From IMG/VR virus record IMGVR_UViG_3300037189_026207, positions 16,742-80,741 of that record: 64,000 bases of DNA, one strand, 5' to 3'. The notes below the pieces were generated by a model. That model saw only the letters and a program-made list of their open reading frames with translations, had not been told where the DNA came from and ran no database searches. Below are positions 1,890 to 64,000 of this stretch, in pieces (position 1 is the first letter of the stretch; each line of letters opens with the position of its first letter). A program made the position numbers and the translations under genes. Source of the DNA: a virus.

Positions 1890-2292
1890 CGAATCCAACA
1901 AGGCTCAGCCGGCCCCGGTTATTGAATCTAATGATCCGGCTTGCGATTTGCGGTTTTTCGGCGCTGCTAATAAATTTGCCGAAGAGATGATCAAAAAAAT
2001 TCCGGAACTGCACGGCGTGGCGGTAATTCCGATGTGGACGCCGCAGCTTAAGGACGTGCCTAACGGATTACTGCGGTTACGCAACGAAACGCCGCCGTAT
2101 ATCGCGGCACTACTGCAAATGTCCGGAAATGTCGTGGCATTTAATATTGATGTGCAGCGCGACATGCTGCACCAAATGCGCGCGTTTGATCAGATGGCTA
2201 AAGATATTGCCACAGAAGTAAAAAATAAAGTCGACGAGTTAACGGCGCTGAACGAAAAAATTGCAAATAGCAAGGAGCAAAAAGCGCAATAA
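1867..2292 (+). CDS. Hypothetical protein with C-terminal coiled coil
   Basis: Operon-packed ORF. Confidence 0.6.
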   Translation: MTENELSDESNKAQPAPVIESNDPACDLRFFGAANKFAEEMIKKIPELHGVAVIPMWTPQLKDVPNGLLRLRNETPPYIAALLQMSGNVVAFNIDVQRDMLHQMRAFDQMAKDIATEVKNKVDELTALNEKIANSKEQKAQ

Positions 2293-2558
2293 TGCCGACG
2301 CTAACAGAAGATCAAATTCTTGTAGATAAACTGCGTAAAAGATACGAAGGTTTGTCCGAAAAAGACGCTAGAGCCGATCTTCACGCAAAGTACGCTGAAA
2401 CTTGGAACGAACAAGAACTAGCCGCCGAGTTTGATGTGCTGGCGATAGACGGACCAACTGTCCAAGTAGTCCGAAAAGTCGATAGGCAAGCGGGAACTGT
2501 CGGATATATTGAGAAGCCGCGGGTGTACTTTGCCTTCGTGGGGTGTGATGATGAATGA
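2292..2558 (+). CDS. Hypothetical phage protein
   Basis: Operon-packed ORF; TAATG overlap. Confidence 0.6.
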   Translation: MPTLTEDQILVDKLRKRYEGLSEKDARADLHAKYAETWNEQELAAEFDVLAIDGPTVQVVRKVDRQAGTVGYIEKPRVYFAFVGCDDE

Positions 2559-2991
2559 ATACAAAAAATTTGGTACCGGAGCAGTGCGCAGTAACGATCG
2601 CGAAACTGTCCGATACGACTTGATTTCGCCCATTGGATTGCGCGCCCTGGCCGAAACATACGCAGAGGGAGCCGAGAAGTTTGGCGCAAATAACTGGGAA
2701 AACGGCATGCCGGTTACGGACATCATAAACCACGTATTAGCGCACATCTACGATTTTTTAGGGGGGTGCCGGAAAGAGCCGCACCTCGCTCACGCCGCCT
2801 GGGGATTATTAGCGGCAATACACTCGCTTGAGCAGTGGCCGGAACTGAATACAGCCACGCTCCGCGGCCCAAACTGCACGTGCCCGCCCGCTGCGCAGAA
2901 ACCCGCAGCCGCAGCCGCGGCGGCCGCAGCAGACGGGCAACTCGATACTCTACGGCAAAAATATGCCGCGCCGACGAATGGAAATTCGTAA
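2551..2991 (+). CDS. dATP/dGTP diphosphohydrolase-domain (DUF5664-like) protein
   Basis: FGTGAVR...RYDLISP...LAETYAEGAEKFGANNWENG...HLAHAAW motif pattern. Confidence 0.8.
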   Translation: MNEYKKFGTGAVRSNDRETVRYDLISPIGLRALAETYAEGAEKFGANNWENGMPVTDIINHVLAHIYDFLGGCRKEPHLAHAAWGLLAAIHSLEQWPELNTATLRGPNCTCPPAAQKPAAAAAAAAADGQLDTLRQKYAAPTNGNS

Positions 2992-3077
2992 ACGGCTGTT
3001 CAGCTATTGAAACTTTTATTGCGGTGACCTATCTTTCAATGACCGCCACGAACCGGCGGCCACCCAAGGAGCTAGAC

Positions 3078-3857
3078 ATGTCCGTCTCGACAGGTACGTC
3101 TGCAGAGAATTTTTGGGACGACGGCCTTGAAGAAGAAGCAGAGTGCGAAAAGTTTCTGCAAGAGCAGAAAACAAAAGTTATTGAATACGAAGAAGAAGAG
3201 ACCAGCGCAGAACTCGCTGGTGACGACGAAGACGAAGACGAAGAGTACGAAGAAGACGAAGAAGAAGAAGATGTCGATGATGATATTGAGGACGCTGCGG
3301 ACGTAGAAGAAGAAGAAGACGACGACGTTGAGTTGCCGGAAACGGACCACGCCGCAGAAGAAGAGGATAGTGAAACGGAAAATGATCCGGTTGCTGACGC
3401 CGAAGATGCAGATGCAACCAAATCTGTGAAAGGAAAGAAGATGGCTAAGCCGAAGACACGGACTGGCGGTAAGACGAAGGCCGAAGCGATTCGCGAAGTA
3501 ATTGACCGGCGCAAGCGAGCCGGCGAGTCGCTGCGTCCGCGAGATATTATTGAAGAGCTGACCGATAACGGGTTTGCTGTTAATGCGTCGCAGGTTAGCG
3601 TCACGTTGCGCAGCATGGGCGTGCCTCCGGCGCCGAAGGGTCGGATCAAAGGCACCAAGATTAAGCCCGCGACTCCTGGCGCTGAGCCCAAGAGTCGTAT
3701 GGCGCTGAAGACGGGCGTTGGCGAAAAGCCAGCGCACAACGGCAAGCCGGCCGACGCGGCTAACATGGTAGACATGGCCGTTGAGTTTCTAAAGGCCGCA
3801 GGCGGTCACGACAAGGCCGTCGAACTGCTCGACTCGATTGCGCGCTTTGCTCGCTGA
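3078..3857 (+). CDS. Protein with very acidic N-terminus and basic, putative DNA-binding C-terminal domain
   Basis: AAGGAG SD before ATG 3078; D/E-rich tract; then KTKAEAIREVI...RPRDIIEELTDNGFAVNASQVSVTL helical domain. Confidence 0.7.
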   Translation: MSVSTGTSAENFWDDGLEEEAECEKFLQEQKTKVIEYEEEETSAELAGDDEDEDEEYEEDEEEEDVDDDIEDAADVEEEEDDDVELPETDHAAEEEDSETENDPVADAEDADATKSVKGKKMAKPKTRTGGKTKAEAIREVIDRRKRAGESLRPRDIIEELTDNGFAVNASQVSVTLRSMGVPPAPKGRIKGTKIKPATPGAEPKSRMALKTGVGEKPAHNGKPADAANMVDMAVEFLKAAGGHDKAVELLDSIARFAR

Positions 3858-3885
3858 TCGATAGTCGAGTTTCGTGGATTGCGCT

Positions 3886-3930
3886 ACCCGGCGCGGGCTT
3901 GGTCGAAAGGCTGGCCCGCGCCGGGTTTTT
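3886..3930 (+). terminator. Intrinsic terminator
   Basis: ACCCGGCGCGGGC...GAAA...GCCCGCGCCGGGT stem followed by a T run. Confidence 0.75.
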
Positions 3931-4103
3931 GCGTTTGTAGCCGAAAAATCGCGGTGGCTTGACGCGGCGACAGAAATTCGGCATCACAGAAGAAACGGGC
4001 CAAGCTGACTGGTGGCCTAACCAATCAATGTCCGCGCGATGAGCGCGCCACAAATTTAATACAAATCATCGGTTTAAACTTTTTCTACAAACAGAAAGCT
4101 GTT

Positions 4104-5651
4104 ATGTACCTTTACTTGTTGAAGCACTCGGCCGGCGATGGTTATACGGTTGTTGGTCTGGCGCCCTCTAGCCGCGGCCGGGCCCCAAAGAATCATCACG
4201 CGCATGAATTTACTACTAAGTCCGGCGTGGAATTTAGTGGTTATTTTGCCGGAGTATCGAAGGATACGATTGATGCGGCAAGCAGCTGCGCTGAAATGAA
4301 GCAAGCGGTTGTCGACGGGGCCGGCACGCCAATCGCTCCTGACCCGGAGCAAATGACGATTGCCTGGGCGGCTGGAATGCACAGTGTTTTTAAGGCCATT
4401 ATTCCGACTGCGCCGCCGACAATGCAGCGCCAAATGGAGAGTGTGGTCGCGGCGCTAGACAAGATCTTCGACCCGAGTCGGTCTGGCGACACGGTTACCG
4501 AAGAAGAGCGTAATGAAATTGAAGAAATTATCGCGAATAATAAGAAGTTGTGCAACGTCGCGCTGGGCACGCTAGGCGCCAGCTGGACGAGCAAGAACGG
4601 GCTGACGTTCGATGCCGTCGAGCGGGTGGCTAAGAAGCGCGGAGCGACCAGTAAGGACGAAGGCAGCAGCCCAGCGCCCGCAAATGAGCCCAAGGCTAGC
4701 GCCTTCGGGTTTGAGCGGCTGAGCGGCGAAAAGCCTGAATTGAAGATTGTTGATCCGGCCGCGGAGCCGCAAACGACTGAGGCCAGCGGCGTGTTTATGC
4801 CAAAACCGGATTCGACTTATATCATCAATGAAAATACCGAAAATCTGTTTAAGATCTTAAATGTATCGCGACGGCACGGGCCACAAAATGTTAATTTGGT
4901 CGGGCCGCACGGTTGCGGCAAGACCGAATTGGCTATTCAATTTTCGGCCGCGGCAGAATCGCCGATGCTGATTATGGACTGCGCAAATTTGCGTGAGGCG
5001 CGTGACTGGTTCGGCTACAAGACGGCTCGTGAGGGCACAGTTTACTGGCACGAATCGCAATTTGTTCGTGCGGTCGAGGCTGGCGGTCACGTAATTCTGC
5101 TTGACGAGCTAAATCGCGCAAATCCTCATATTCTCAATACGCTAATGCCGCTGCTGGACGGCCGCCGGTTTACGTATCTCGAGGAGAAGGGCGATAAAAT
5201 TTGTGTCGGGCCGGGTACGGTATTCTTCGCCACGATGAACGAGGGCGCCGGATACACAGGCACGACCACTATTGACCGAGCTCTCCGCGACCGCTTCCCC
5301 CGGCGCTTGGAGCTCACGTATCTCTCCGAAAAGGACGAGATCAAGCTGCTGGTCAATCGAATTGGAATTGAAAAGGATATTGCGACGCTGCTGGTGCAGA
5401 TGGCCAACAAGATTCGCCAGGATTCCAGCGGATTGTCTGCGTCGCTAACTGAAAGTGTCTCTACTCGACAGCTGCTGGCTGCCGCGTACGACTTTGTGAT
5501 CGGTGGCGTGGAGACGCTACAGTTTACGATCAGCAATCACTTCTCACCCGACGGCGACGACGATTCGGAGCGCGTCAAGGTGCAGAATATTATTCAGGGC
5601 AAGTTTGGTCATTTACTGGCCGCGAAGGCGGACAAGAAGAAGGGAGCATAA
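4104..5651 (+). CDS. MoxR/CbbQ/CobS-family AAA+ ATPase with N-terminal extension
   Basis: GPHGCGKT Walker A, ILLDELNRA Walker B, FATMN sensor, DRALRDRF arginine finger, STRQL sensor II. Confidence 0.9.
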   Translation: MYLYLLKHSAGDGYTVVGLAPSSRGRAPKNHHAHEFTTKSGVEFSGYFAGVSKDTIDAASSCAEMKQAVVDGAGTPIAPDPEQMTIAWAAGMHSVFKAIIPTAPPTMQRQMESVVAALDKIFDPSRSGDTVTEEERNEIEEIIANNKKLCNVALGTLGASWTSKNGLTFDAVERVAKKRGATSKDEGSSPAPANEPKASAFGFERLSGEKPELKIVDPAAEPQTTEASGVFMPKPDSTYIINENTENLFKILNVSRRHGPQNVNLVGPHGCGKTELAIQFSAAAESPMLIMDCANLREARDWFGYKTAREGTVYWHESQFVRAVEAGGHVILLDELNRANPHILNTLMPLLDGRRFTYLEEKGDKICVGPGTVFFATMNEGAGYTGTTTIDRALRDRFPRRLELTYLSEKDEIKLLVNRIGIEKDIATLLVQMANKIRQDSSGLSASLTESVSTRQLLAAAYDFVIGGVETLQFTISNHFSPDGDDDSERVKVQNIIQGKFGHLLAAKADKKKGA

Positions 5652-16467: not shown

Positions 16468-17049
16468 ATGTCAGCTGTTCTTGACGCGATTCGCCAGGTA
16501 ACTGAAGTTGCAGAGAAAATTAAGAATGATAGTCCGCAAGATTTTCCAATTGCGGCTAATGTTGGAGACGCAGTACGGCAAGGCGATATTTATATTCAAT
16601 TGCTCGAGCCGTTAACTAAGGCGCCAGCTTTTTATACAAAGATTGCTGAGCCGGTGTTTCCATATCAGTTAGCGCCTGGAAATACCAAGGGGTCGAGGCA
16701 TTGTTTGGAAGCCAGTGACGGCGTAGAAATTTACGTACCACAAACTGACGTGCTTTTAGATGAGAATCTTGACGGCAATGATCGGTTTGAACTTGGTCGT
16801 GGATTTCGAGAGGATGTACACAAGTATGCTGAAAATCTTTCTTCAGTAGCCGGCGTACCTGTACATGAAATCGCCGCCGGAATTATCGAGGCTATGGATC
16901 TTGCTGGTCCGATTTTCGTGTTGAAGAATCCGACTACAGTATCGCATCCAGAGCATGGTAATTGGAATTTGCCGGCCGGAACGTATCGGTGTGTGTTTCA
17001 GCGCACTGTGTCGCTTAGTAGCAACTCTATTCGTAGAGTTTTAGACTGA
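16468..17049 (+). CDS. Conserved hypothetical, usual partner of DUF6745 proteins
   Basis: RQGDIY...LAPGNTKGSRH...HPEHG...LPAGTY...QR...RRVLD. Confidence 0.7.
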   Translation: MSAVLDAIRQVTEVAEKIKNDSPQDFPIAANVGDAVRQGDIYIQLLEPLTKAPAFYTKIAEPVFPYQLAPGNTKGSRHCLEASDGVEIYVPQTDVLLDENLDGNDRFELGRGFREDVHKYAENLSSVAGVPVHEIAAGIIEAMDLAGPIFVLKNPTTVSHPEHGNWNLPAGTYRCVFQRTVSLSSNSIRRVLD

Positions 17050-17059
17050 TTGTGTCGAG

Positions 17060-17176
17060 TGTTGAGATTTGGATTAATGCCAATCTCAACAATATTTTTT
17101 ACGCAACAAAGGGCTGGATTAACGCCGCCCTTTGTTGTTTTTGTTTTTGGAGGGCGCTTTTAAACGCCCTCCAAAA
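17060..17176. repeat. Three tandem inverted repeats (hairpins); two share the 12-nt loop TGGATTAAYGCC
   Basis: TGTTGAGATT-TGGATTAATGCC-AATCTCAACA; CAACAAAGGGC-TGGATTAACGCC-GCCCTTTGTTG; TTTTGGAGGGCG-CTTTTAAA-CGCCCTCCAAAA. Confidence 0.85.
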
Positions 17177-25908: not shown

Positions 25909-26025
25909 GTTTTTGTGTCTGCACCTAGCATATGTGGTTTACTTTTTTTGACTGTTTTTTGGCCTGTTGTTTTACTTTTTTGGTGGCCTAAAGCAGGGTA
26001 GATAATTTGCATCTGGAGGCAGTTT

Positions 26026-26562: not shown

Positions 26563-26588
26563 TTTGACGCCAAAGACAAATAACTTTT

Positions 26589-26662
26589 GGGCCTCTAGCT
26601 CAATTGGTTAGAGCATCGGACTTTTAATCCGTTGGTTCTGGGTTCGAGTCCCAGGGGGCCCA
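26589..26662 (+). tRNA. tRNA-Lys (anticodon TTT)
   Basis: GGGCCTC/GGGGCCC acceptor stem, TAGCTCAATTGGTTAGAGC D arm, CTTTTAA anticodon loop, GGTTCGAGTCC T arm; CCA not encoded. Confidence 0.95.
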
Positions 26663-26842
26663 TCACCCCGGGCATGCTGATGTCCAGAGCGCCATGGCTC
26701 AAGCCGCTGCCTTCATTGCCGGCGGCTCAGCACCCTAGTCATGAGTGGGTTTGTAACCATGAAGCCGGCGGTGTTTAAGCTAAGACGGGATTCCTCACGG
26801 ACGCGCGCCGGAAGTCGTAAACGCAAGGAAGAAAGCGCAGGT
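26663..26842 (+). ncRNA. Putative structured RNA between two tRNAs
   Basis: Stems GGGCAT/ATGTCC; CATGG/CCATG enclosing AGCCGC/GCGGCT and ACCC/GGGT; CCGGCG-GTGTTT/GGACGC-G-CGCCGG; no convincing ORF. Confidence 0.45.
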
Positions 26843-26913
26843 TGCCCGATGGTGTAACGGTAGCACAAGAGATTTTGGTTCTCTTTGTCTAGGTTCAAAT
26901 CCTAGTCGGGCAT
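26843..26913 (+). tRNA. tRNA-Gln (anticodon TTG)
   Basis: TGCCCGA/TCGGGCA acceptor stem, AGAGA-TTTTGGT-TCTCT anticodon arm, GGTTCAAATCC T arm. Confidence 0.95.
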
Positions 26914-28091: not shown

Positions 28092-29225
28092 TTGTCTACG
28101 CCTTTTTTTGTGTTTTGCGCAGATCTGCATTTAGCAGACGGCGCGTGGACGAGCCGCCCGGCAATTTACGGCGATTCCTATTACAGTTTTGCCCAGATTG
28201 TTGACCATTGTCTGGAGCACAAGCTCCCGATGGTTATTGGCGGCGACGTCTTAGATGTAAAAAAGAATTTAGCTCGGCCAGTGCAGCAGCTGTATCTGCA
28301 GATGTCGCGTATGGCGGAAGCTAAGCTGCCCGTTTACTACATTCAGGGGCAGCACGAACTTGACCGCAACGTAACGTGGTTGAGCGTACATCCCTGGCCC
28401 GTCAACGTGCATAAGACGACGTTTACAATTGCGGGCTTAAAGATATACGGGATTGATTGGCTTCCGCGCGGAGAGATCCAGGAAGCCTTTGAGCAAGTTC
28501 CGCCAGACACGGACATTCTAGTATGTCATCAGGTCTGGAAAGACTTTATGAAAAACGTAGGACGACCCGAGTGTCATCTAGGCGATGTGCATCACGTTAA
28601 ATTTGTGCTGAGTGGGGACTTCCACGTTACCACAATTGAGACGGCGCCAAATGCGCAAGGAGATCCGGCGCAACTTATCTCAACCGGCTCTACCTGCATG
28701 CAAGACATCAGCGAAAGTTCGGACAAATTCTTTTATGTTGTCGGCAGTGGTGGTTCTTGTTTGGAAGTTTTTTCGCAACAGCTAAAAACTCGCCGCATGA
28801 AGTCATATACGGTAACCAGCGCAGAAATGCTCGATGATTTGTGCGCAGGCGGTTTTCTTAAAGACATTCAAGACATGATCGGAGATTTGCCCGCAGAAAT
28901 AAATAAACCGCTTGTGCGCGTTAAGTTCGATAAAACTATCCCGGACGCCTATATTCGGATTACCACAGCCGTCGGCGACCATGCACATTTATTTTGTGAC
29001 GCGCTTGTTAACAAAAATCGCGGCGAGCAGGAAACCAATCGCGCAGTCACTAAGAATGATTTGCTGACAACCGTAGCGGAGTTGCTGAATAACGACCCCG
29101 CTGCGTTTAATCTGGCCAGCATTCTTCTAGCCGCCGATAGCCCGGCCGGCGAACTAGAAGATCAGTTTGTACAATTCCAAAACCCAGAGGAATCTAAAGA
29201 TGCAGTTATTGCGTCTGGAAGTTAA
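28092..29225 (+). CDS. sbcD: SbcD/Mre11-like metallophosphoesterase nuclease
   Basis: ADLH, GGDVLD, QGQHE, CHQ, SGDFH motifs; adjacent to an SMC-like ATPase. Confidence 0.85.
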   Translation: MSTPFFVFCADLHLADGAWTSRPAIYGDSYYSFAQIVDHCLEHKLPMVIGGDVLDVKKNLARPVQQLYLQMSRMAEAKLPVYYIQGQHELDRNVTWLSVHPWPVNVHKTTFTIAGLKIYGIDWLPRGEIQEAFEQVPPDTDILVCHQVWKDFMKNVGRPECHLGDVHHVKFVLSGDFHVTTIETAPNAQGDPAQLISTGSTCMQDISESSDKFFYVVGSGGSCLEVFSQQLKTRRMKSYTVTSAEMLDDLCAGGFLKDIQDMIGDLPAEINKPLVRVKFDKTIPDAYIRITTAVGDHAHLFCDALVNKNRGEQETNRAVTKNDLLTTVAELLNNDPAAFNLASILLAADSPAGELEDQFVQFQNPEESKDAVIASGS

Positions 29226-31329
29226 GAACTGGTGTCAACATAAATACCGTGTCTGCACATTTACACGCGGGCTGGTTGCAATCGTAGGAAAGATTGGCTC
29301 GGGTAAATCTAATTTATTAGGCGCAATTTGTTGGCTGCTTACCGGCGAAAATCCAAACGCCGGCGTAAAAGCTGATAATGTGGCGCAGTTGGCGTCTCCC
29401 GACGAGCCGGCATTTGCCACGCTTGAGTTTGAACACTCCGGGCACGTGGTTGTTGTTACGCGGCACTTGCTTCCCGAAAAAGAACAAGCCACGCTTCTCG
29501 TCGACGGTAATGAGGCTGCTCGCGGAGATAAGGCGGTTACAGCTTACATTGAAAAGCTGCTCGGTATCGACAGCAAATTTATTTCTCGGTTTGTAATCGT
29601 TGCGCAGAACGAGATCTTTGCATTTATCGAGGATGGCGCGGCTGAGGTTGATAGGTTTTTCCAGAAATTGTTTGGCACAGCGGTCGCCGAGAAATGCCAA
29701 GACGTTATCGGCAAACACTTAAACAAATTGACAATCCCAGAGGTAATAGAAACTTCAAATCAGCTAATTACGCGGCTTGACGAATTAAATGTCCAATTGA
29801 ATGCGCTGGACATTGAAATCGCGAAACTACCCTCGCTCGAGTCTTTTTTAGCTATTCAACAAACGCAGCAAAAAGTTATTCAAGACTGGGAGCGGCGAAC
29901 GCGCTTGGTGGCGGAATTAGCTACCGCAGAAAAAAGCACTGAGATTCATGAACAGCAGCTTCAAGACGCTACGCGGGAACTTGCGCAGTACGACAGTGAT
30001 CTTGAGGCACTGCGCAAAGCCCTCGGCGGCGATCAGGCGGCACATTCAACCGCTAAGATTGCACTAGGGCATTGGGCAAACTATAAGCATTTGTCTACCG
30101 CAAAAGAAAAGACGCAAAATCGTATAAATGAAATTGTAACGCTGCGCGCGGCAACACAAGCTCCGGCAGCACCCGCGGCAGACGTTATTGATGTTGCTGT
30201 CAAACAAGAGATGGCGACAATTGCAGAGCTGACGCGTTTAGAAAAATTTGTAAGCACATTTGCGACAGACGGCGTAGCCGAGTGTCCGACTTGCCACACT
30301 TCCGCAAAAGATTTGAAAAAAGCTGTCGAGCAAGCTCAGCGCAGTATTGTTGAATTAAATGCGTTGCGTAAAAAGCAAAATGCGGAGGTTCAAGCGGCGT
30401 ATACCGCAAAGCAGGCATATGATGTATGGGCGCAGCAGGATTTAAACCTAGCGGCAGAAGAGAAACAGCTCCGCGAATCCATGGCGCTGTTCTCCAATGT
30501 GCAAATGCCCGAGCTGAGCGAAGAAGAGTCCGCAAAAATTGTTATGGACTTTGAAAATTTTCAAAAGGCTGAGCTGGGAATTCTTCCGCTGGCGCAAGCC
30601 GCAAAAGAAAAACGCGCGGCGTTGTCTGGCGGTCTGTCGGCGGCTAAACAGCAATATGAAAATCTTCAGGCGCAGATTGCTGACATAAAAGTAACGCAGG
30701 CAGAGGCGCATATGGCTACCACTGTACTGCAAAATTTAAGCCAGCAGTGTGTCAAGCGCCAAGAGTTAGAGCGGCAACACGCAGAGTTGAAATTTTCTTG
30801 CGATAACATTAATCAACAATATTTAACTGCAAAAGAAAATGAGCAAAAAGCTGAGCGGATGCGTGACTGGTCTGCGGTAGCCACTTCGGCAAAAGACGCG
30901 CTCAAGGCTGCGCCGAGGATTGTTGCGGCTAGAAATTTAAAAAGACTAGAGGCTGCAATAAATGAATTATTACAAGTATTTGGTGTTGACTTTTTTGTAC
31001 GCGCCGCCAATGACGAATCGCCAACATTTATTGCTGAATTTTTCGATGGACGTAAACAGCCGGCAAAAAGATTATCGTACGGGCAAAAAACCGTATTAGC
31101 GTTAGCTTTTCGCGTAGCTGTTAATGCGTTGTTTGCCGAAGAAATTGGTTTACTGGCGCTGGATGAACCCACAGCTTATTTAGATCAACAGAGAATTAAG
31201 GCGCTAGCCCCGGTTCTTGAAAAATTGCGCGAGCTTTCTACCGCGCGTGGGTTACAATGTCTATTGGTAACTCACGAAACTAGCCTGGCTCATTTGTTTG
31301 AGTCGGCGGTTGAGCTCGATGTGCAATAA
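29200..31329 (+). CDS. sbcC: SbcC/Rad50-like SMC ATPase
   Basis: GKIGSGKSN Walker A, coiled coil with CPTC zinc hook, LSYGQK signature, LALDEPT, VTHE. Confidence 0.9.
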   Translation: MQLLRLEVKNWCQHKYRVCTFTRGLVAIVGKIGSGKSNLLGAICWLLTGENPNAGVKADNVAQLASPDEPAFATLEFEHSGHVVVVTRHLLPEKEQATLLVDGNEAARGDKAVTAYIEKLLGIDSKFISRFVIVAQNEIFAFIEDGAAEVDRFFQKLFGTAVAEKCQDVIGKHLNKLTIPEVIETSNQLITRLDELNVQLNALDIEIAKLPSLESFLAIQQTQQKVIQDWERRTRLVAELATAEKSTEIHEQQLQDATRELAQYDSDLEALRKALGGDQAAHSTAKIALGHWANYKHLSTAKEKTQNRINEIVTLRAATQAPAAPAADVIDVAVKQEMATIAELTRLEKFVSTFATDGVAECPTCHTSAKDLKKAVEQAQRSIVELNALRKKQNAEVQAAYTAKQAYDVWAQQDLNLAAEEKQLRESMALFSNVQMPELSEEESAKIVMDFENFQKAELGILPLAQAAKEKRAALSGGLSAAKQQYENLQAQIADIKVTQAEAHMATTVLQNLSQQCVKRQELERQHAELKFSCDNINQQYLTAKENEQKAERMRDWSAVATSAKDALKAAPRIVAARNLKRLEAAINELLQVFGVDFFVRAANDESPTFIAEFFDGRKQPAKRLSYGQKTVLALAFRVAVNALFAEEIGLLALDEPTAYLDQQRIKALAPVLEKLRELSTARGLQCLLVTHETSLAHLFESAVELDVQ

Positions 31330-31332
31330 TTC

Positions 31333-32268
31333 ATGATATACTCAAATGATGAAAGCGCAATTAAGCTACACGTAGACGACGCCGGTTTTGTGTGGCACGT
31401 TTCCGGGATCGATAAGCCACAAAATTCCGGCAAGTTGGTAGATACATTTTTGTATTCTTCGCCCGTGCTGCGCGTTAGTTCGAACGTGCGGGTGTTGGGT
31501 TTGTCGCAGAATGCAGAATTAATTACTAATATGTATCTGCGAAAGCGTCAGCGCGAATTAGGCAGCATATTAGTCGCTGGGCCAAACATCTGTGAGTCTG
31601 GGTTGGAGCTCCGCGATCCGTACATTGTTTTGATGCGGATGCGCGAGTCTTTTTTAACGTCAGCTTGCGGCGGTTGGCACACGATGACTGACGCAGACTA
31701 CGCTACTTATGCGTTAGTGGCTAAAGCCCGGCAAACAGCGCATTGGTTTGATACGCCGGCGCGAGCTTTTTATACGGCTCACCCGGCATTTCCGGCGCTG
31801 CAGTTTATTCCTAACATTTCAAATCAGGACGCGGCTACTCTTTTAGCTACGATTGTGGATCCCAGATGGTATGTAGATCGGCGTATTCCTGATCGTGCGT
31901 CTAAGCTTGAGTTGTATCTTGGTTTAACGCCAAAAATTCAGCGCCGCATATCCAATGATAAAAAATTAATTTGCCGGGGGAGAGACTTACGTTGCGCTAT
32001 TGTTTTAAATTGCTGGAAAACTCAACACCCAGGCGCCGTCGACTATAATCTGCCGCAAAACTTTATCTGGCGAGTTTGGAAAGCGGCCGGCGGTGGCGCG
32101 AAGGGTGACCTGCGGGCTTCTCAGGCTTTTGTTCGTTATTTGCGCCTTAACTGGTTAGACGCATTAATTTTAAGAGCAGGCCCCCGAGATCGTATTTTCT
32201 CTAGCAACAATTTTTTCAAAACATCTGAAGAACGAGACGCTTATTCTACTCATATGTCGGCAATGTAA
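31333..32268 (+). CDS. IS110/Nop-domain-like (TIGR-Tas-like) putative RNA-binding protein
   Basis: HPAFPALQFIPNISNQDAATLLATIVDPRWY...ASKLELYLGLTP matches the IS110 C-terminal/Nop pattern (L..IPG.G...AA.LLA.I.D..RF.....L..Y.GL.P); terminal helix DLRASQAFVRYLRLNW. Confidence 0.6.
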   Translation: MIYSNDESAIKLHVDDAGFVWHVSGIDKPQNSGKLVDTFLYSSPVLRVSSNVRVLGLSQNAELITNMYLRKRQRELGSILVAGPNICESGLELRDPYIVLMRMRESFLTSACGGWHTMTDADYATYALVAKARQTAHWFDTPARAFYTAHPAFPALQFIPNISNQDAATLLATIVDPRWYVDRRIPDRASKLELYLGLTPKIQRRISNDKKLICRGRDLRCAIVLNCWKTQHPGAVDYNLPQNFIWRVWKAAGGGAKGDLRASQAFVRYLRLNWLDALILRAGPRDRIFSSNNFFKTSEERDAYSTHMSAM

Positions 32269-32273
32269 TTTCT

Positions 32274-32768
32274 ATGCAAGAAGTTATTATCAAATTGCGG
32301 TTTAATCGGGAATGCTTAGGCGCCTCAAAGCGTAAACGACACTCGCAGGTCGTGTTTTCTTTTGATCATGATCCCGCCGGGCGCATCATGTTTATGCCGT
32401 CTGCGTGGAGTAGCGTTATGCGCTATGCGGCTAAATTATCAAATCGGCATCATGACGCAGTGCAGAAAATCGACTGGTGCCCGCTTGTAGAGGGTCAGCC
32501 TAGACCTGACTGGCGGCGTACGATAGTATCCAAGGCCGGCGAGGCTACCAGGACGCACTACGCCGTGCACGAGGCTTTCCCGCCCGGCTCAACTATATTA
32601 ATTTCTGCAGTTGTCCCAGATGAAATTTCGCTGAAAGAATTTGAAGATTTATTGACAATCGTCGGAAAATACAAAGGCTTTTCACCATTTAACAACGCAA
32701 CAGAGCATTATGGGACATTTGAAGTCTTATCAATCACCACAATCAGAGACAACGCGAATGTCGGCTAG
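32274..32768 (+). CDS. Stand-alone Cas7/RAMP-like protein
   Basis: IKLRFNRECLG (beta1 plus G), FDHDPAGRIMFMPSAWSSVMR (RD..G.P.IPGSS.KG..R-like), HEAFPPGS, LLTIVGKYKGFSPF...YGTFEV (G-loop plus last strand). Confidence 0.65.
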   Translation: MQEVIIKLRFNRECLGASKRKRHSQVVFSFDHDPAGRIMFMPSAWSSVMRYAAKLSNRHHDAVQKIDWCPLVEGQPRPDWRRTIVSKAGEATRTHYAVHEAFPPGSTILISAVVPDEISLKEFEDLLTIVGKYKGFSPFNNATEHYGTFEVLSITTIRDNANVG

Positions 32769-34293
32769 TCTAGCGTGCGACATAATTATTAATCGCTGTG
32801 GAAACAGATTAACAGTTCATCGCGCCGACAACATGCCTTTTTCGGCGGAATTGCTCGAAGCGTTAACAAAAGATTTACGCTACCAGCATGTCGAGCATGT
32901 TCACGGCGCAGCGCAGCGCAACCCTATTACAGGGCAGCGCCAGTACTTTAAGACGACTGAGTACAAGTTATTTCGGTATGAGAACGGTAAGCTAATCGTG
33001 CTGGGTGGTTACTTAGCCCGAATTGGCTCGCAACTAAAGCGTCTTGGTTGCCGGGTAGCGTTGCAAGATACCTCGCCACCCCGCAAGCGCCCTGACGCAT
33101 TTAAACCAGAGTGGGCCAACATGGAGGGCCGAATTGAATTTAGAGCCCGGCAGGAGGAGTGTTTACGGCTTTTGTCGCGCGTACCTTGTGGAATTATTAA
33201 AGCGGTCACCGGTTTCGGCAAGACCACACTTATTGGCGCTGCTGCCCTGCTATTTCCTGAAGCAAAAATTCATGTTGTTACGAAGTCGGTAGACGTTGCT
33301 GAGCGTATTGTTCGGTCTTTAAAGCGTTTTGTGCCCAAAGTCGGAATGGTCGGCGACGGCTCAAAACACTGGGAGCGTGTAACAGTTATCACGGCTGGCA
33401 GTCTCGCTCACTCCGATGGCGACGCTGATTTTTTGTTTTGCGACGAAGTACATCAGCTAGCCACAGTGAATTTTTCAACATCGCTAGCACAACGATATAA
33501 GCACAGCCGCAATTTCGGGCTAAGCGCAACTCCATATGCGCGCATGGACAACGCGCATGCAGTTCTTGAGCCGTTGTTTGGTCCTATGATATTTGAACTG
33601 ACATATCAAGAAGCGGTAGAGCTCGGACTAGTCGTACCTATTCGTGTTCGTTGGTTGCCGATTCGTATGACGTTTAACCCCGCAGAACGATACTCAAATC
33701 GTGTGGCGCGAAAGCGTTACGGGGTCTGGACAAACGCTGATCGAAACCGTATGATCGCCGACGCGGTGCGAGAGTATCCTGACACGCATCAAATTTTGAT
33801 TCTTGTCGAAACAATCGAGCACGCAGTTCATCTGGGCTCTCTTCTGCCCGAGTTCACGCTGGTGTACTCGAGCATGTTTCCTTCTGACTGCAACAACTAT
33901 AAAAAGCGCGGTCTTTTGCCCAAAGATTACAAGCCGCTAAGTGATTACGACAAGCATCAACTACGTAATAAATTTGAGTCAGGTGAGCTGCGCAAAGTTA
34001 TTGCAACAGACGTTTGGGCTACCGGCGTAGATTTTGAGCAGTTAAATGTGTTGGTCCGGGCCGACGACCGCGACAGTGACATTGTTGACGTTCAGGGTCC
34101 TGGCCGTGTCAGCCGTTTATACACCGCGCCTAATGGTGATAAAAAAGAATTTGGCGAAGTTATCGATTGCATGGATACATTCGACCCTACTTTTTATCGA
34201 AAGAGTACGGGTCGTCGCAATTCTTACAAGCTTTTAGGATGGGAGCAGAATTGGAATGAAGCGCAGCGCAGCTGGAGGAACAATAGCGACTGA
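32758..34293 (+). CDS. SF2 DNA helicase (UvsW/Rad25-like)
   Basis: RARQ Q-motif, TGFGKT, DEVH, SATP, TGVD, QGPGRVSR. Confidence 0.9.
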   Translation: MSASLACDIIINRCGNRLTVHRADNMPFSAELLEALTKDLRYQHVEHVHGAAQRNPITGQRQYFKTTEYKLFRYENGKLIVLGGYLARIGSQLKRLGCRVALQDTSPPRKRPDAFKPEWANMEGRIEFRARQEECLRLLSRVPCGIIKAVTGFGKTTLIGAAALLFPEAKIHVVTKSVDVAERIVRSLKRFVPKVGMVGDGSKHWERVTVITAGSLAHSDGDADFLFCDEVHQLATVNFSTSLAQRYKHSRNFGLSATPYARMDNAHAVLEPLFGPMIFELTYQEAVELGLVVPIRVRWLPIRMTFNPAERYSNRVARKRYGVWTNADRNRMIADAVREYPDTHQILILVETIEHAVHLGSLLPEFTLVYSSMFPSDCNNYKKRGLLPKDYKPLSDYDKHQLRNKFESGELRKVIATDVWATGVDFEQLNVLVRADDRDSDIVDVQGPGRVSRLYTAPNGDKKEFGEVIDCMDTFDPTFYRKSTGRRNSYKLLGWEQNWNEAQRSWRNNSD

Positions 34294-48303: not shown

Positions 48304-48941
48304 GCCGCAGAAAGAATAAAAAGCAACACACGAATATTAAACTCAGCAACGATGTAGCCCCGCAATCATCTGATTCTCAAGAACCGCAATTAACTTGCCC
48401 TGCGCCAGTTTTGTCGGTATCTCGAGCGCCGACGTCTGAGCCTTCTCCCGAGCCTTCCTCTGAGCCCGTAACCGAGCTGGAGCAGGAGCCCCCGATAGAA
48501 ATGCAGTCGTCAGACGCAGCAGACCCGGGCGAAAAAGACGCGTTTGTTGTTGCGCAAGCTGACGTCGCAATTAAACGCGGCGGCGAAAAATTTTATGACT
48601 ACTATTTGCAGTATCGCAATTTAAGAGAGATTGCTCGCGCTATTAACGGATTACAGCAATCTGCTCCTTTTCCTCGGCAACTGTCAATTCAAAAAATAAC
48701 AATAGACTTCACAATCGACGGAGTAGCTAAGACGGCTGAAAGCGCTGAGCCCAAAAAAGTTGGCGATATAGCGCCGCTGATTTCTTTTGCGATTCGAAAT
48801 GTTATTGAAAAAATGCACAATGAACTTCATGTGCTTTCGTATTTAGTAACGGGAATGCGCGACGCTGTACAAACTGCATTTAATTCTTGCGCAATGGCGC
48901 CCCCGGCCGGTGATTATGACAACACAAACACACAGCTATGA
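48300..48941 (+). CDS. Hypothetical protein with P/S/E-rich N-terminus
   Basis: Operon-packed ORF. Confidence 0.6.
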   Translation: MSRRKNKKQHTNIKLSNDVAPQSSDSQEPQLTCPAPVLSVSRAPTSEPSPEPSSEPVTELEQEPPIEMQSSDAADPGEKDAFVVAQADVAIKRGGEKFYDYYLQYRNLREIARAINGLQQSAPFPRQLSIQKITIDFTIDGVAKTAESAEPKKVGDIAPLISFAIRNVIEKMHNELHVLSYLVTGMRDAVQTAFNSCAMAPPAGDYDNTNTQL

Positions 48942-62890: not shown

Positions 62891-64000
62891 ATGGCTAATA
62901 CCATTCGTATTAAGCGTCGCGCAACTGGTAATGCCGGCGCTCCTGGTGCTTTAAAAAACGCTGAGTTAGCTTTTAACGAAGTTGACCAGACACTGTATTA
63001 CGGTAAGGGTGCTGACGGTAACGGCAACGCTACTAGCGTTATCGCCATCGGCGGCGTGGGCTGGGATGCGACCCCCGACCTGTCGGGTTACGGCACGCTG
63101 GCCGGCGCGAATACGTGGTCGAACACGAACACGTTTAGCAGCACGCTGAACGTCAGCGGCGAGGGCAGCGCGCTTCAGTTAAACGGTACGTCGATTACTT
63201 CGACTGCCACGGAACTGAACCTCGTTGACGGTTCTGTTGCCGGCACGATTGTGAATAGCAAGGCTGTGGTCTACGGCGCGGCCGGCGAAGTAAACGCCAC
63301 CACGCTGCAGATCGGTGGTAATTCGATCACTTCGACCGCCGCGGAACTCAACATCCTCGACGGCGTGACGGCTGACTCTACGGAACTGAACCTCCTTGAC
63401 GGTTCTGTTGCCGCCACGATTGTGAATAGCAAGGCTGTTGTCTACGGTGCGGCTGGCGAAGTAAATGCCACCACACTGCAGATTGCGGGCTCGTCGATCA
63501 CTTCGACGGCTGCTGAACTCAACCTCGTTGACGGTTCTGTTGCCGGCACGATTGTAAACAGCCGGGCGGTGGTCTACGGCGCGGCTGGCGAAGTAAACGC
63601 CACCACACTGCAGATCAGTGGCAATTCGATCACTTCGACCGCCTCGGAACTCAACCTCGTTGATGGTTCTGCTGCCGGCACGATTGCGAATAGCAAGGCT
63701 GTGGTGTACGGTGCGGCTGGCGAAGTAAACGCCACCACACTGCAGATCAGTGGCAATTCGATCACTTCGACTGCTGCTGAACTCAACCTCGTTGACGGTT
63801 CTGTTGCTGGTACGGTTGTGAATAGCAAGGCTGTGGTCTATGGTGCGGCTGGTGAAGTAAACGCCACCACACTGCAGATTGCGGGCTCGTCGATCACTTC
63901 GACCGCCTCGGAACTCAACATTCTCGACGGCGTGACAGCGGACTTCGCCGAGCTTAACCTGCTCGACGGCGCCGTTGCTAACACCGTGGTGAACAGCAAG
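62891..64000 (+). CDS. Tail fibre / long repeat protein (runs off the window end)
   Basis: GAGG SD, ATG 62891: MANTIRIKRR..G.AGAP..L..AELAFNEVD..LYYGKG, then 44-aa repeats; open to the window end and absent from the ORF track. Confidence 0.8.
   Translation, partial: MANTIRIKRRATGNAGAPGALKNAELAFNEVDQTLYYGKGADGNGNATSVIAIGGVGWDATPDLSGYGTLAGANTWSNTNTFSSTLNVSGEGSALQLNGTSITSTATELNLVDGSVAGTIVNSKAVVYGAAGEVNATTLQIGGNSITSTAAELNILDGVTADSTELNLLDGSVAATIVNSKAVVYGAAGEVNATTLQIAGSSITSTAAELNLVDGSVAGTIVNSRAVVYGAAGEVNATTLQISGNSITSTASELNLVDGSAAGTIANSKAVVYGAAGEVNATTLQISGNSITSTAAELNLVDGSVAGTVVNSKAVVYGAAGEVNATTLQIAGSSITSTASELNILDGVTADFAELNLLDGAVANTVVNSK
63190..64000 (+). repeat. Coding tandem repeat with a 132-bp (44-aa) unit and occasional 39-bp (13-aa) sub-duplication
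   Basis: Unit ITSTA.ELNLVDGSVAGTIVNSKAVVYGAAGEVNATTLQI.G.S starting near 63192, 63324, 63495, 63627, 63759, 63891. Confidence 0.9.

Follow-up and report, generated by a model that had tools for sequence, protein, structure and literature searches.

What are two folds known from RNA-guided systems doing side by side in the replication operon of a phage? The question is raised by two short genes, here called A and B, in a 64,000-nt stretch of viral DNA (positions 16,742 to 80,741 of the IMG/VR record IMGVR_UViG_3300037189_026207; hereafter the window), which belongs to a record of 80,741 nt estimated to be 39% complete. An earlier note, made from the letters of the window, had taken A for a Nop/IS110-like protein and B for a Cas7/RAMP-like protein, and had proposed that the two form a new RNA-guided ribonucleoprotein (RNP). 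Our analysis bears out both folds and lends no support to the guide. The explanation we favor, with a probability of roughly one half, is that A and B are exapted guide-RNA-holder folds that serve as fixed, non-programmable nucleic-acid-binding subunits of a recombination and replication module built on SbcCD and a superfamily 2 (SF2) helicase. The two genes are as follows.

31333..32268, + strand: gene A, by predicted fold a compact TasR/IS110-like protein of 311 amino acids (aa)
32274..32768, + strand: gene B, by predicted fold a minimal RAMP of the Cas7/Csm3 type with a single RNA recognition motif (RRM), 164 aa

Predicted fold and conservation of gene A

Gene A has no family match in Pfam, PHROGs or PADLOC. 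The NCBIfam model TIGR_Tas_endo (NF052498) aligns weakly to residues 124-200 (E 9e-4, 19.2 bits against a cut-off of 100), and the same model is matched by 37 of 54 close and 13 of 24 very diverse members of the A family, with a best E of 8.8e-7 and always below the cut-off. Two family members weakly match the NCBIfam model transpos_IS110, and the ESM-Atlas clusters nearest gene A carry PF02371. We generated an AlphaFold2 model of gene A from a 54-sequence alignment (predicted local distance difference test score, pLDDT, 90.3; predicted template modelling score, pTM, 0.89) and compared it with 48,161 PDB representatives using VIA, a structure search independent of Foldseek. The first-ranked chain was TasR (9mty_B, Z 10.1, 231 residues aligned over 8-309), followed by the Nop domain of TasH (21kl_A, Z 8.2, root-mean-square deviation 3.2, residues 128-308) and, as third-best chain, the IS110 recombinase ISCro4 (Z 6.8, 237 residues). 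The N-terminal ~110 residues alone retrieved YqgF/RuvX, poxvirus and phage RuvC resolvases, and the RuvC domains of Cas12/TnpB at Z 5-6.7. In the model, residues ~1-115 form a RuvC/YqgF-like domain and residues ~120-309 a Nop/Tnp-type helical domain, and in the region between nuclease and Nop core, where a Tas protein would have its coiled coil for dimerisation, the model has only short helices (120-134 and 141-149). The Nop/IS110 fold assigned in the earlier note is thus recovered by the structure search, and gene A is, as modelled, a compact member of the Tas/IS110 superfamily that joins a RuvC-like domain to one of the Nop/Tnp type.

The residues conserved across the A family are not the ones expected of an active nuclease or recombinase. 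A 24-sequence alignment that extends to 21% identity leaves G114, H150, D176-P-R-W179, W228, R247, F266 and W274 invariant. No acidic residue of the N-terminal domain is invariant or nearly so in this alignment, so there is no DEDD set; in the beta-4 segment (I-L-V-A-G-P) the window's gene A has L79/V80, and many relatives have x-E-V. S207 does not vary within the close clade, but many deep members have another residue or a deletion at this position, so there is no family-wide serine either. With neither the RuvC nor the serine catalytic positions conserved, the pair does lack an intact nuclease motif in A, as had been noticed from the letters. The catalytic correspondences of A and B to IS621, TasR and Csm3 were drawn by secondary-structure position, not by sequence alignment, and the IS621 residue numbering mapped onto gene A is likewise our assumption. 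The protein is basic (isoelectric point 9.5, C-terminal domain 9.9), and the family medians of both A and B are about 9.0.

A word-based search gave 320 homologues of gene A, and its profile retrieved 1,049 clusters at 50% identity, 607 of them below 1e-30, with all those listed being ~300 aa long. A family this large and this uniform in length fits a core gene rather than a mobile or defence gene. Searching 50,697 GenBank phages with tblastn returned no relative of A, B or the neighbouring helicase, and PDB profile searches with the A and B alignments (A1, A2, A3 and A5) returned chance-level rows only. Both A and B are far from chance open reading frames (ORFs).

Predicted fold and conservation of gene B

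Gene B has no sequence-level family in Pfam, PHROGs, PADLOC or NCBIfam. Among 19 diverse B proteins, none matches the Pfam RAMPs model PF03787 at E<=10, and in the ESM-Atlas a RAMPs cluster appears for gene B only at 0.76. The AlphaFold2 model of gene B (pLDDT 83.4), searched with Foldseek against the PDB, gave 45 matches at E<=1e-3 (probability 1.00, E down to 6.8e-5), and every listed match was a CRISPR RAMP or a RAMP-bearing effector complex. In VIA, the best 23 of the 48,161 chains were all CRISPR RAMPs, with Z from 10.8 to 7.1; they comprise Csm3, Cmr4, Cas7 of types VII, IV and I-D, gRAMP, and other Csm/Cmr RAMP subunits. Among them are the Csm subunit 9g9a_G (Z 10.8), Csm3 (9.5) and Cmr4 (9.1), and alignments at Z 9-11 cover 127-156 of the 164 residues. 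The best BFVD matches of gene B are phage RAMPs. The RAMP/Cas7 fold proposed for B therefore holds, and gene B is, on its modelled structure, a minimal Cas7-type RAMP.

In the model, residues 81-98 form a beta-hairpin, and the glycine-rich loop reads G131-x-Y-x-G135-x-S137-P. Invariant throughout the family are G131, G135, S137, W45, R82 and H99-E100, with P138 near-invariant. Asp31/Asp33, at the expected place of the Csm3 catalytic loop, are retained in the close clade only. Like A, the B protein is basic (isoelectric point 9.0). The word-based search gave 245 homologues, and no longer (fusion) protein containing B turned up, which is weak evidence.

Genomic context and conservation of the pair

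A and B lie within a block of genes on the same strand, with the following immediate neighbours.

28092..29225, + strand: SbcD/Mre11-like nuclease subunit (phrog_100, SbcD-like, E 2.5e-7), which opens the conserved block
29167..31329, + strand: SbcC/Rad50-like SMC ATPase (Pfam SMC_N, 2.2e-18, and AAA_23; phrog_77, SbcC-like, 8.1e-34)
32710..34293, + strand: SF2 DNA helicase (Pfam ResIII and Helicase_C; phrog_16, DNA helicase, 2.9e-33)

The two genes had been described as lying 3 nt after SbcC and 5 nt apart, with B overlapping the helicase, and the ORFs are arranged exactly so: 3 nt separate the SbcC stop from the start of A, 5 nt the stop of A from the start of B, and the last 59 nt of B are shared with the helicase ORF. 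This overlap looks real because codons 144-157 of B, where the helicase frame starts, are the sole synonymous-suppressed stretch in 36 aligned B genes. Downstream of B follow the SF2 helicase, an unknown protein of 257 aa, a DnaB-like helicase, a DnaG-type primase and a fusion of uracil-DNA glycosylase with PolA, and Pfam and PHROGs confirm the Mre11/Rad50, helicase, primase and polymerase identities given earlier. The PolA is only ~25% identical to those of T5-like Vibrio phages. Co-transcription of A and B with the SbcC/helicase block is plausible from the arrangement, since the ORFs share a strand, abut or overlap, and have no convincing terminator in between; this much of the earlier claim stands, and the promoter and terminator consensus scans, with signal no higher than in shuffled sequence, add nothing to it.

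To see the pair in its relatives, we ran IMG/VR searches seeded with each gene. The A-seeded search gave 63 loci with A identities from 63% to 25%, on contigs mostly of 35-225 kb and several of ~200 kb. The order SbcD, SbcC, A, SF2 helicase is kept in all loci with sufficient upstream flank: SbcC stands directly upstream of A wherever flank exists, and SbcD is collinear in 59 of the 63, the four loci without it having their flank ended by the contig end. Gene B is present in 53 of these loci and missing from L041, L049, L051/52, L054, L056, L057-59 and L063, most of which are deep-branching. The B-seeded search also gave 63 loci, with A upstream in 62 and the helicase downstream in 62, the remaining helicase case ending with the contig. 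The gap between A and B is 0-10 nt in most loci, and B overlaps the helicase. As such, the pair is conserved in relatives, one of the checks that the earlier note had proposed. In a quick tree of A with moderate support, B-positive loci fall on either side of the deepest splits and B-negative loci fall into about three patches; because of this distribution, an old A-B pairing with several losses of B would fit.

A few loci depart from the usual arrangement. Extra small ORFs lie between A and B in three of them (L007:10926-12663, L008:10926-12031 and L009:10923-11174). The SF2 helicase ORF is ~880-920 aa long in L007, L020, L029, L043 and L053, with similarity starting only from query residue ~150-170, as might result from an intein, the insertion of a homing endonuclease or an extra domain. 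Just one B-seeded locus has no A that could be recognised, L142 (IMGVR_UViG_3300017991_000051, 2171-3872); the space from SbcC to B is taken up there by four small ORFs of 96-194 aa, and A may have been replaced, split or too far diverged.

Search for a guide RNA or array

Gaps of 3 nt and 5 nt leave no intergenic room for an RNA beside A or B. We then asked whether an RNA is hidden inside the genes themselves. In 36 diverged A and B genes, third-position entropy is saturated throughout (mean 0.8), except at the codons of B that overlap the helicase, and by this synonymous-site test no embedded RNA, including a stem-loop of the tigRNA-like kind, is present in either gene.

Guides could also be stored at a distance, and a full-genome search for repeat arrays had been suggested in the earlier note. 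We scanned both the 80.7-kb contig and a complete relative, IMGVR_UViG_3300014720_000001 (G001; 204,621 nt, scanned whole). With TRF and a regular-spacing k-mer scan, no CRISPR-like or TIGR-like array was found in either, the repeats retrieved being coding repeats only (collagen-like 9-nt periods and 132-189-nt domain repeats). The vrRNAs of VIPR consist of 9-16 GGY/NN repeats (bioRxiv 10.64898/2026.04.26.720920), and a scan for this pattern reached a maximum of 19/27 in the contig and 22/27 in G001, with 5-nt periodicity at shuffle level. As a positive control, the scan recovered all four vrRNAs of phage SUSP1, with scores of up to 27/27; these four flank the gene named SUSP1 Vipr by PDB 36pp. 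No cas genes were found by PADLOC or Pfam for A and B, or by Pfam and PHROGs for their neighbours, and the earlier remark that the locus has no cas1/cas2, array or transposon ends is borne out. The RNA-guided RNP itself is left unsupported, as neither the contig nor G001 has an array of the CRISPR, TIGR or VIPR type, neither gene embeds an RNA, and B is dispensable in some lineages.

Conserved non-coding DNA was sought by comparing G001 with a second relative (G002), a comparison in which the ORF mask was too aggressive for a GC-rich genome and gaps blurred the periodicity filter; it returned tRNAs plus a small number of short elements, and none of these adjoins A-B. Four short stretches of G001 (113487-113616, 48639-48713, 83218-83332 and 88732-88836) are 75-81% conserved between two phages with A proteins that share only ~50% identity with that of the window. 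Two of these stretches lie outside ORFs of at least 75 aa, the other two have weak codon periodicity, and the longest adjoins a tRNA cluster. They are possibly further small RNAs.

A structured RNA upstream of the operon and a separate VIPR cassette

One structured RNA does lie upstream of the operon.

26659-26841, + strand: R1, a structured RNA of ~175 nt between tRNA-Lys (26588-26664) and tRNA-Gln (26843-26913)

RNAalifold predicts 28 pairs for R1, 20 of them with compensatory changes, and its invariant CCC and GTGGG segments could form a pseudoknot. Rfam has no family for it. A covariance model of R1 has matches in the window and in 27 relatives, in each case upstream of the operon. R1 nearly always lies directly against the 5' end of tRNA-Gln, and its own 3' end would thus be set by RNase P cleavage. 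As a general RNA partner of A and B, R1 is ruled out, since it is missing from L001, L002, L025 and L037, all of which carry tRNA-Gln, A and B, and since no deep clade that retains A and B has it within the 10-kb flanks.

A different RNA-protein cassette was found at one locus of this clade and in no other. In L027 (IMGVR_UViG_3300022752_005685), a complete VIPR-like cassette occupies positions 3267-4840, straight after tRNA-Gln. It starts with about five vrRNA-like GGY/NN units, each with a T-rich tail (3267-3775), and continues with an HNH-like ORF of 120 aa (3777-4139) and a 234-aa Vipr homologue that is 33% identical to SUSP1 Vipr (E 2e-33) and matches PDB 36pp at E 1.5e-25. The same locus retains the core gene B alongside its own Vipr. 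In this clade, then, a guide-using RAMP comes as part of a distinct cassette that is patchily distributed and brings its array along, and B behaves quite differently.

Comparison with known systems

TasR (TaTasR, PDB 9MTY; Faure et al. 2025, PMC12045711) is among the systems closest to gene A, especially in its catalytically dead form, and is similar to it in having an N-terminal RuvC-like and a C-terminal Nop-type domain. In contrast to TasR, the A family scores 19-30 bits against the 100-bit cut-off, has no conserved RuvC acidic residues, has no TIGR array beside the gene or in G001, and is fixed in an SbcCD-helicase operon with a RAMP neighbour. Xu et al. describe a long branch of compact TasR proteins without arrays in densely packed viral genomes (bioRxiv 10.64898/2026.09.09.750476), a description that fits the phage-borne gene A and its lack of room for an array; this branch probably includes the A family. 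The IS110 recombinases IS621 (PDB 8WT6) and ISCro4 (PDB 9T56) share with gene A the two-domain build and a similar length, and align with it structurally over the full length (Z 8.3 and 6.8, respectively). Gene A differs from them in having no conserved DEDD, in that the Ser of its G-L-x-P...S segment is strictly kept in the close clade alone and lost in deep branches, and in that the 3-nt gap before it leaves no upstream non-coding end for a bridge RNA. Its neighbours are the same in all 63 loci, so that gene A, unlike IS110, is not mobile.

Gene B has in common with the Cas7 proteins of CRISPR type III (Csm3/Cmr4) and types VII and IV the palm, the glycine-rich loop and the beta-hairpin. It differs from them in being 164 aa long with a single RRM and in having no Pfam RAMPs signal, cas genes or CRISPR array, and, compared with Csm3, its Asp31/Asp33 are confined to the close clade, the family invariants being instead H99-E100, W45, R82 and the glycine loop. 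The Vipr of Escherichia phage SUSP1 (PDB 36pp) is, like B, a phage-encoded minimal RAMP without a second RRM beside a DNA-acting accessory gene, and the accessory genes of some VIPR types encode helicases or nucleases (bioRxiv 10.64898/2026.04.26.720920). In contrast to VIPR, gene B has neither a GGY/NN tract nor long flanking intergenic regions. The B profile has no match in the SUSP1 genome or to PDB 36pp, and hhalign gives a probability of 4.5% against SUSP1 Vipr and 1% against that of L027, aligning only the glycine loop and the last strand. The structural hit lists, from a library with entries up to April 2026 that may not include 36pp, showed no chain of it.

The archaeal Mre11-Rad50-HerA-NurA end-resection operon combines the Mre11/Rad50 nuclease with a helicase and an RNase-H-fold protein. 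The SbcCD-A-helicase block has the same composition, by analogy only and with no homology claimed; gene A differs in having no nuclease residues and in carrying a Nop-type domain, and the helicase is SF2, not HerA. The earlier note knew of no described system combining the folds of A and B, and our literature search likewise found none. A RAMP neighbour is unmentioned in the TIGR-Tas papers and in the IS110/Nop evolution paper, the SbcCD-helicase operon setting was not found in the Tas papers searched, and the VIPR paper (bioRxiv 10.64898/2026.04.26.720920) makes no mention of IS110, RuvC or replication.

Possible roles of A and B

If A and B are indeed guide-free subunits of the SbcCD-helicase module, we infer their binding targets and the order of events to be as follows. 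Both would be made together with SbcCD and the helicase and would act as nucleic-acid-binding adaptors. A, through its dead RuvC-like and basic Nop-type domains, would keep branched DNA, duplex DNA or an RNA-DNA hybrid in place where SbcCD and the helicase act, and the RAMP palm, glycine loop and thumb of B would coat the single strand exposed by the helicase, as Cas7 coats crRNA (CRISPR RNA). In this way the two proteins would link the processing of ends, and unwinding, with replication that depends on recombination or on an origin. Several points weigh against this. All characterised relatives of the two folds (TasR, TasH, IS110, Nop5, Cas7 and Vipr) work with a guide RNA, so that an RNA partner is what one would expect by default. 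None of our searches would have caught a lone, non-repeated RNA encoded elsewhere or an RNA derived from a transcript. Of the 63 A-seeded loci, 10 lack B, and it occurs nowhere in the complete 226-kb genome G005, so the pair is not an obligate unit, and the roles suggested for A and B are drawn entirely from fold and position.

The main rival explanation is a fixed, non-programmable RNP, in which one phage RNA, or a nascent transcript or primer, lets A and B form or stabilise an R-loop. This R-loop would help to fire an origin or to load a helicase, and the displaced strand would be the substrate of SbcCD and the helicase. Transcript-primed initiation is known in T4, T7 and ColE1. In its most far-reaching form, this would be a new kind of array-less RNP in the replisome operon, with a dead, coiled-coil-less TasR-like A and a Cas7-like filament of B opening an R-loop at a defined place, from which the coupled SF2 helicase and SbcCD would start or restart replication. 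Both folds hold RNA in all their known relatives, the pair is ancient and mostly co-inherited, and the window and 27 relatives do carry the covarying R1 upstream on the same strand. However, R1 is missing from the four loci named above and from the 10-kb flanks of every deep clade with A and B, and no other conserved non-coding element adjoins A-B; on balance we find this reading rather doubtful.

Programmable RNA-guided interference of a new type, with guides elsewhere in the genome and SbcCD and the helicase as effectors against host or competitor DNA, would draw on the same arguments from fold. Phages do encode TIGR-Tas and VIPR for conflicts between elements (PMC12045711; bioRxiv 10.64898/2026.04.26.720920), and VIPR accessory genes include helicases and nucleases. 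However, none of the three known kinds of array occurs in the complete 204.6-kb G001, the catalytic residues are lost, and A and B are core-like with fixed synteny in a replication operon, whereas conflict systems are usually patchy; the real VIPR of this clade is just such a patchy cassette, with a RAMP of its own. We consider interference improbable. Even less probable, in our judgment, is that A and B are anti-defence decoys, dead Tas and Cas7 copies that would poison the TIGR complexes or the type III or type I CRISPR complexes of the host, or sequester the RNAs of these. Mimics of Cas subunits are known from phages, and A and B look like dead miniatures of defence proteins. Anti-defence genes are, however, typically variable and placed in early or accessory regions, whereas A and B show deep conservation at one fixed place and translational coupling to both SbcC and the helicase, and no similarity of B to a host Cas7 could be detected at the sequence level. 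Both the interference and the decoy explanations fit the data poorly.

Other repeats and hairpins in the window

Three further features of the window were noted. A T-rich 12-nt triple repeat lies at 25943-25981, in the non-coding head of the + strand block leading to the SbcCD operon. At 63209-63919 there is a tandem repeat of 132/171 nt in ~4 copies with 85% identity, probably a repeated protein domain. Positions 17060-17176 hold three back-to-back hairpins with unrelated stems of 8-11 bp and T-runs behind the first two; two of the three have a near-identical 12-nt loop, TGGATTAATGCC and TGGATTAACGCC. We take these for intrinsic terminators arranged in tandem, in which the conservation of the loop is odd.

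Implications

Most known RNA-guided systems have the Nop/Tas/IS110 or the RAMP/Cas7/Vipr fold as their protein scaffold, and here the two stand together as fixed core genes in uncultured phages with genomes of ~200 kb, which form a very large clade. As a caution for fold-based mining, a RAMP beside a Tas-like gene is not by itself a defence system. If the two proteins hold an RNA after all, they would represent an unrecognised way to store or borrow a guide, and an array-less RNP of this kind would mean that RNA-guided DNA recognition has been recruited to the virus's own core replication, not to conflict. If instead A and B work free of a guide, as we favor, then these folds would serve replication and recombination, which would bear on the origin of Tas, IS110, Vipr and CRISPR effectors.

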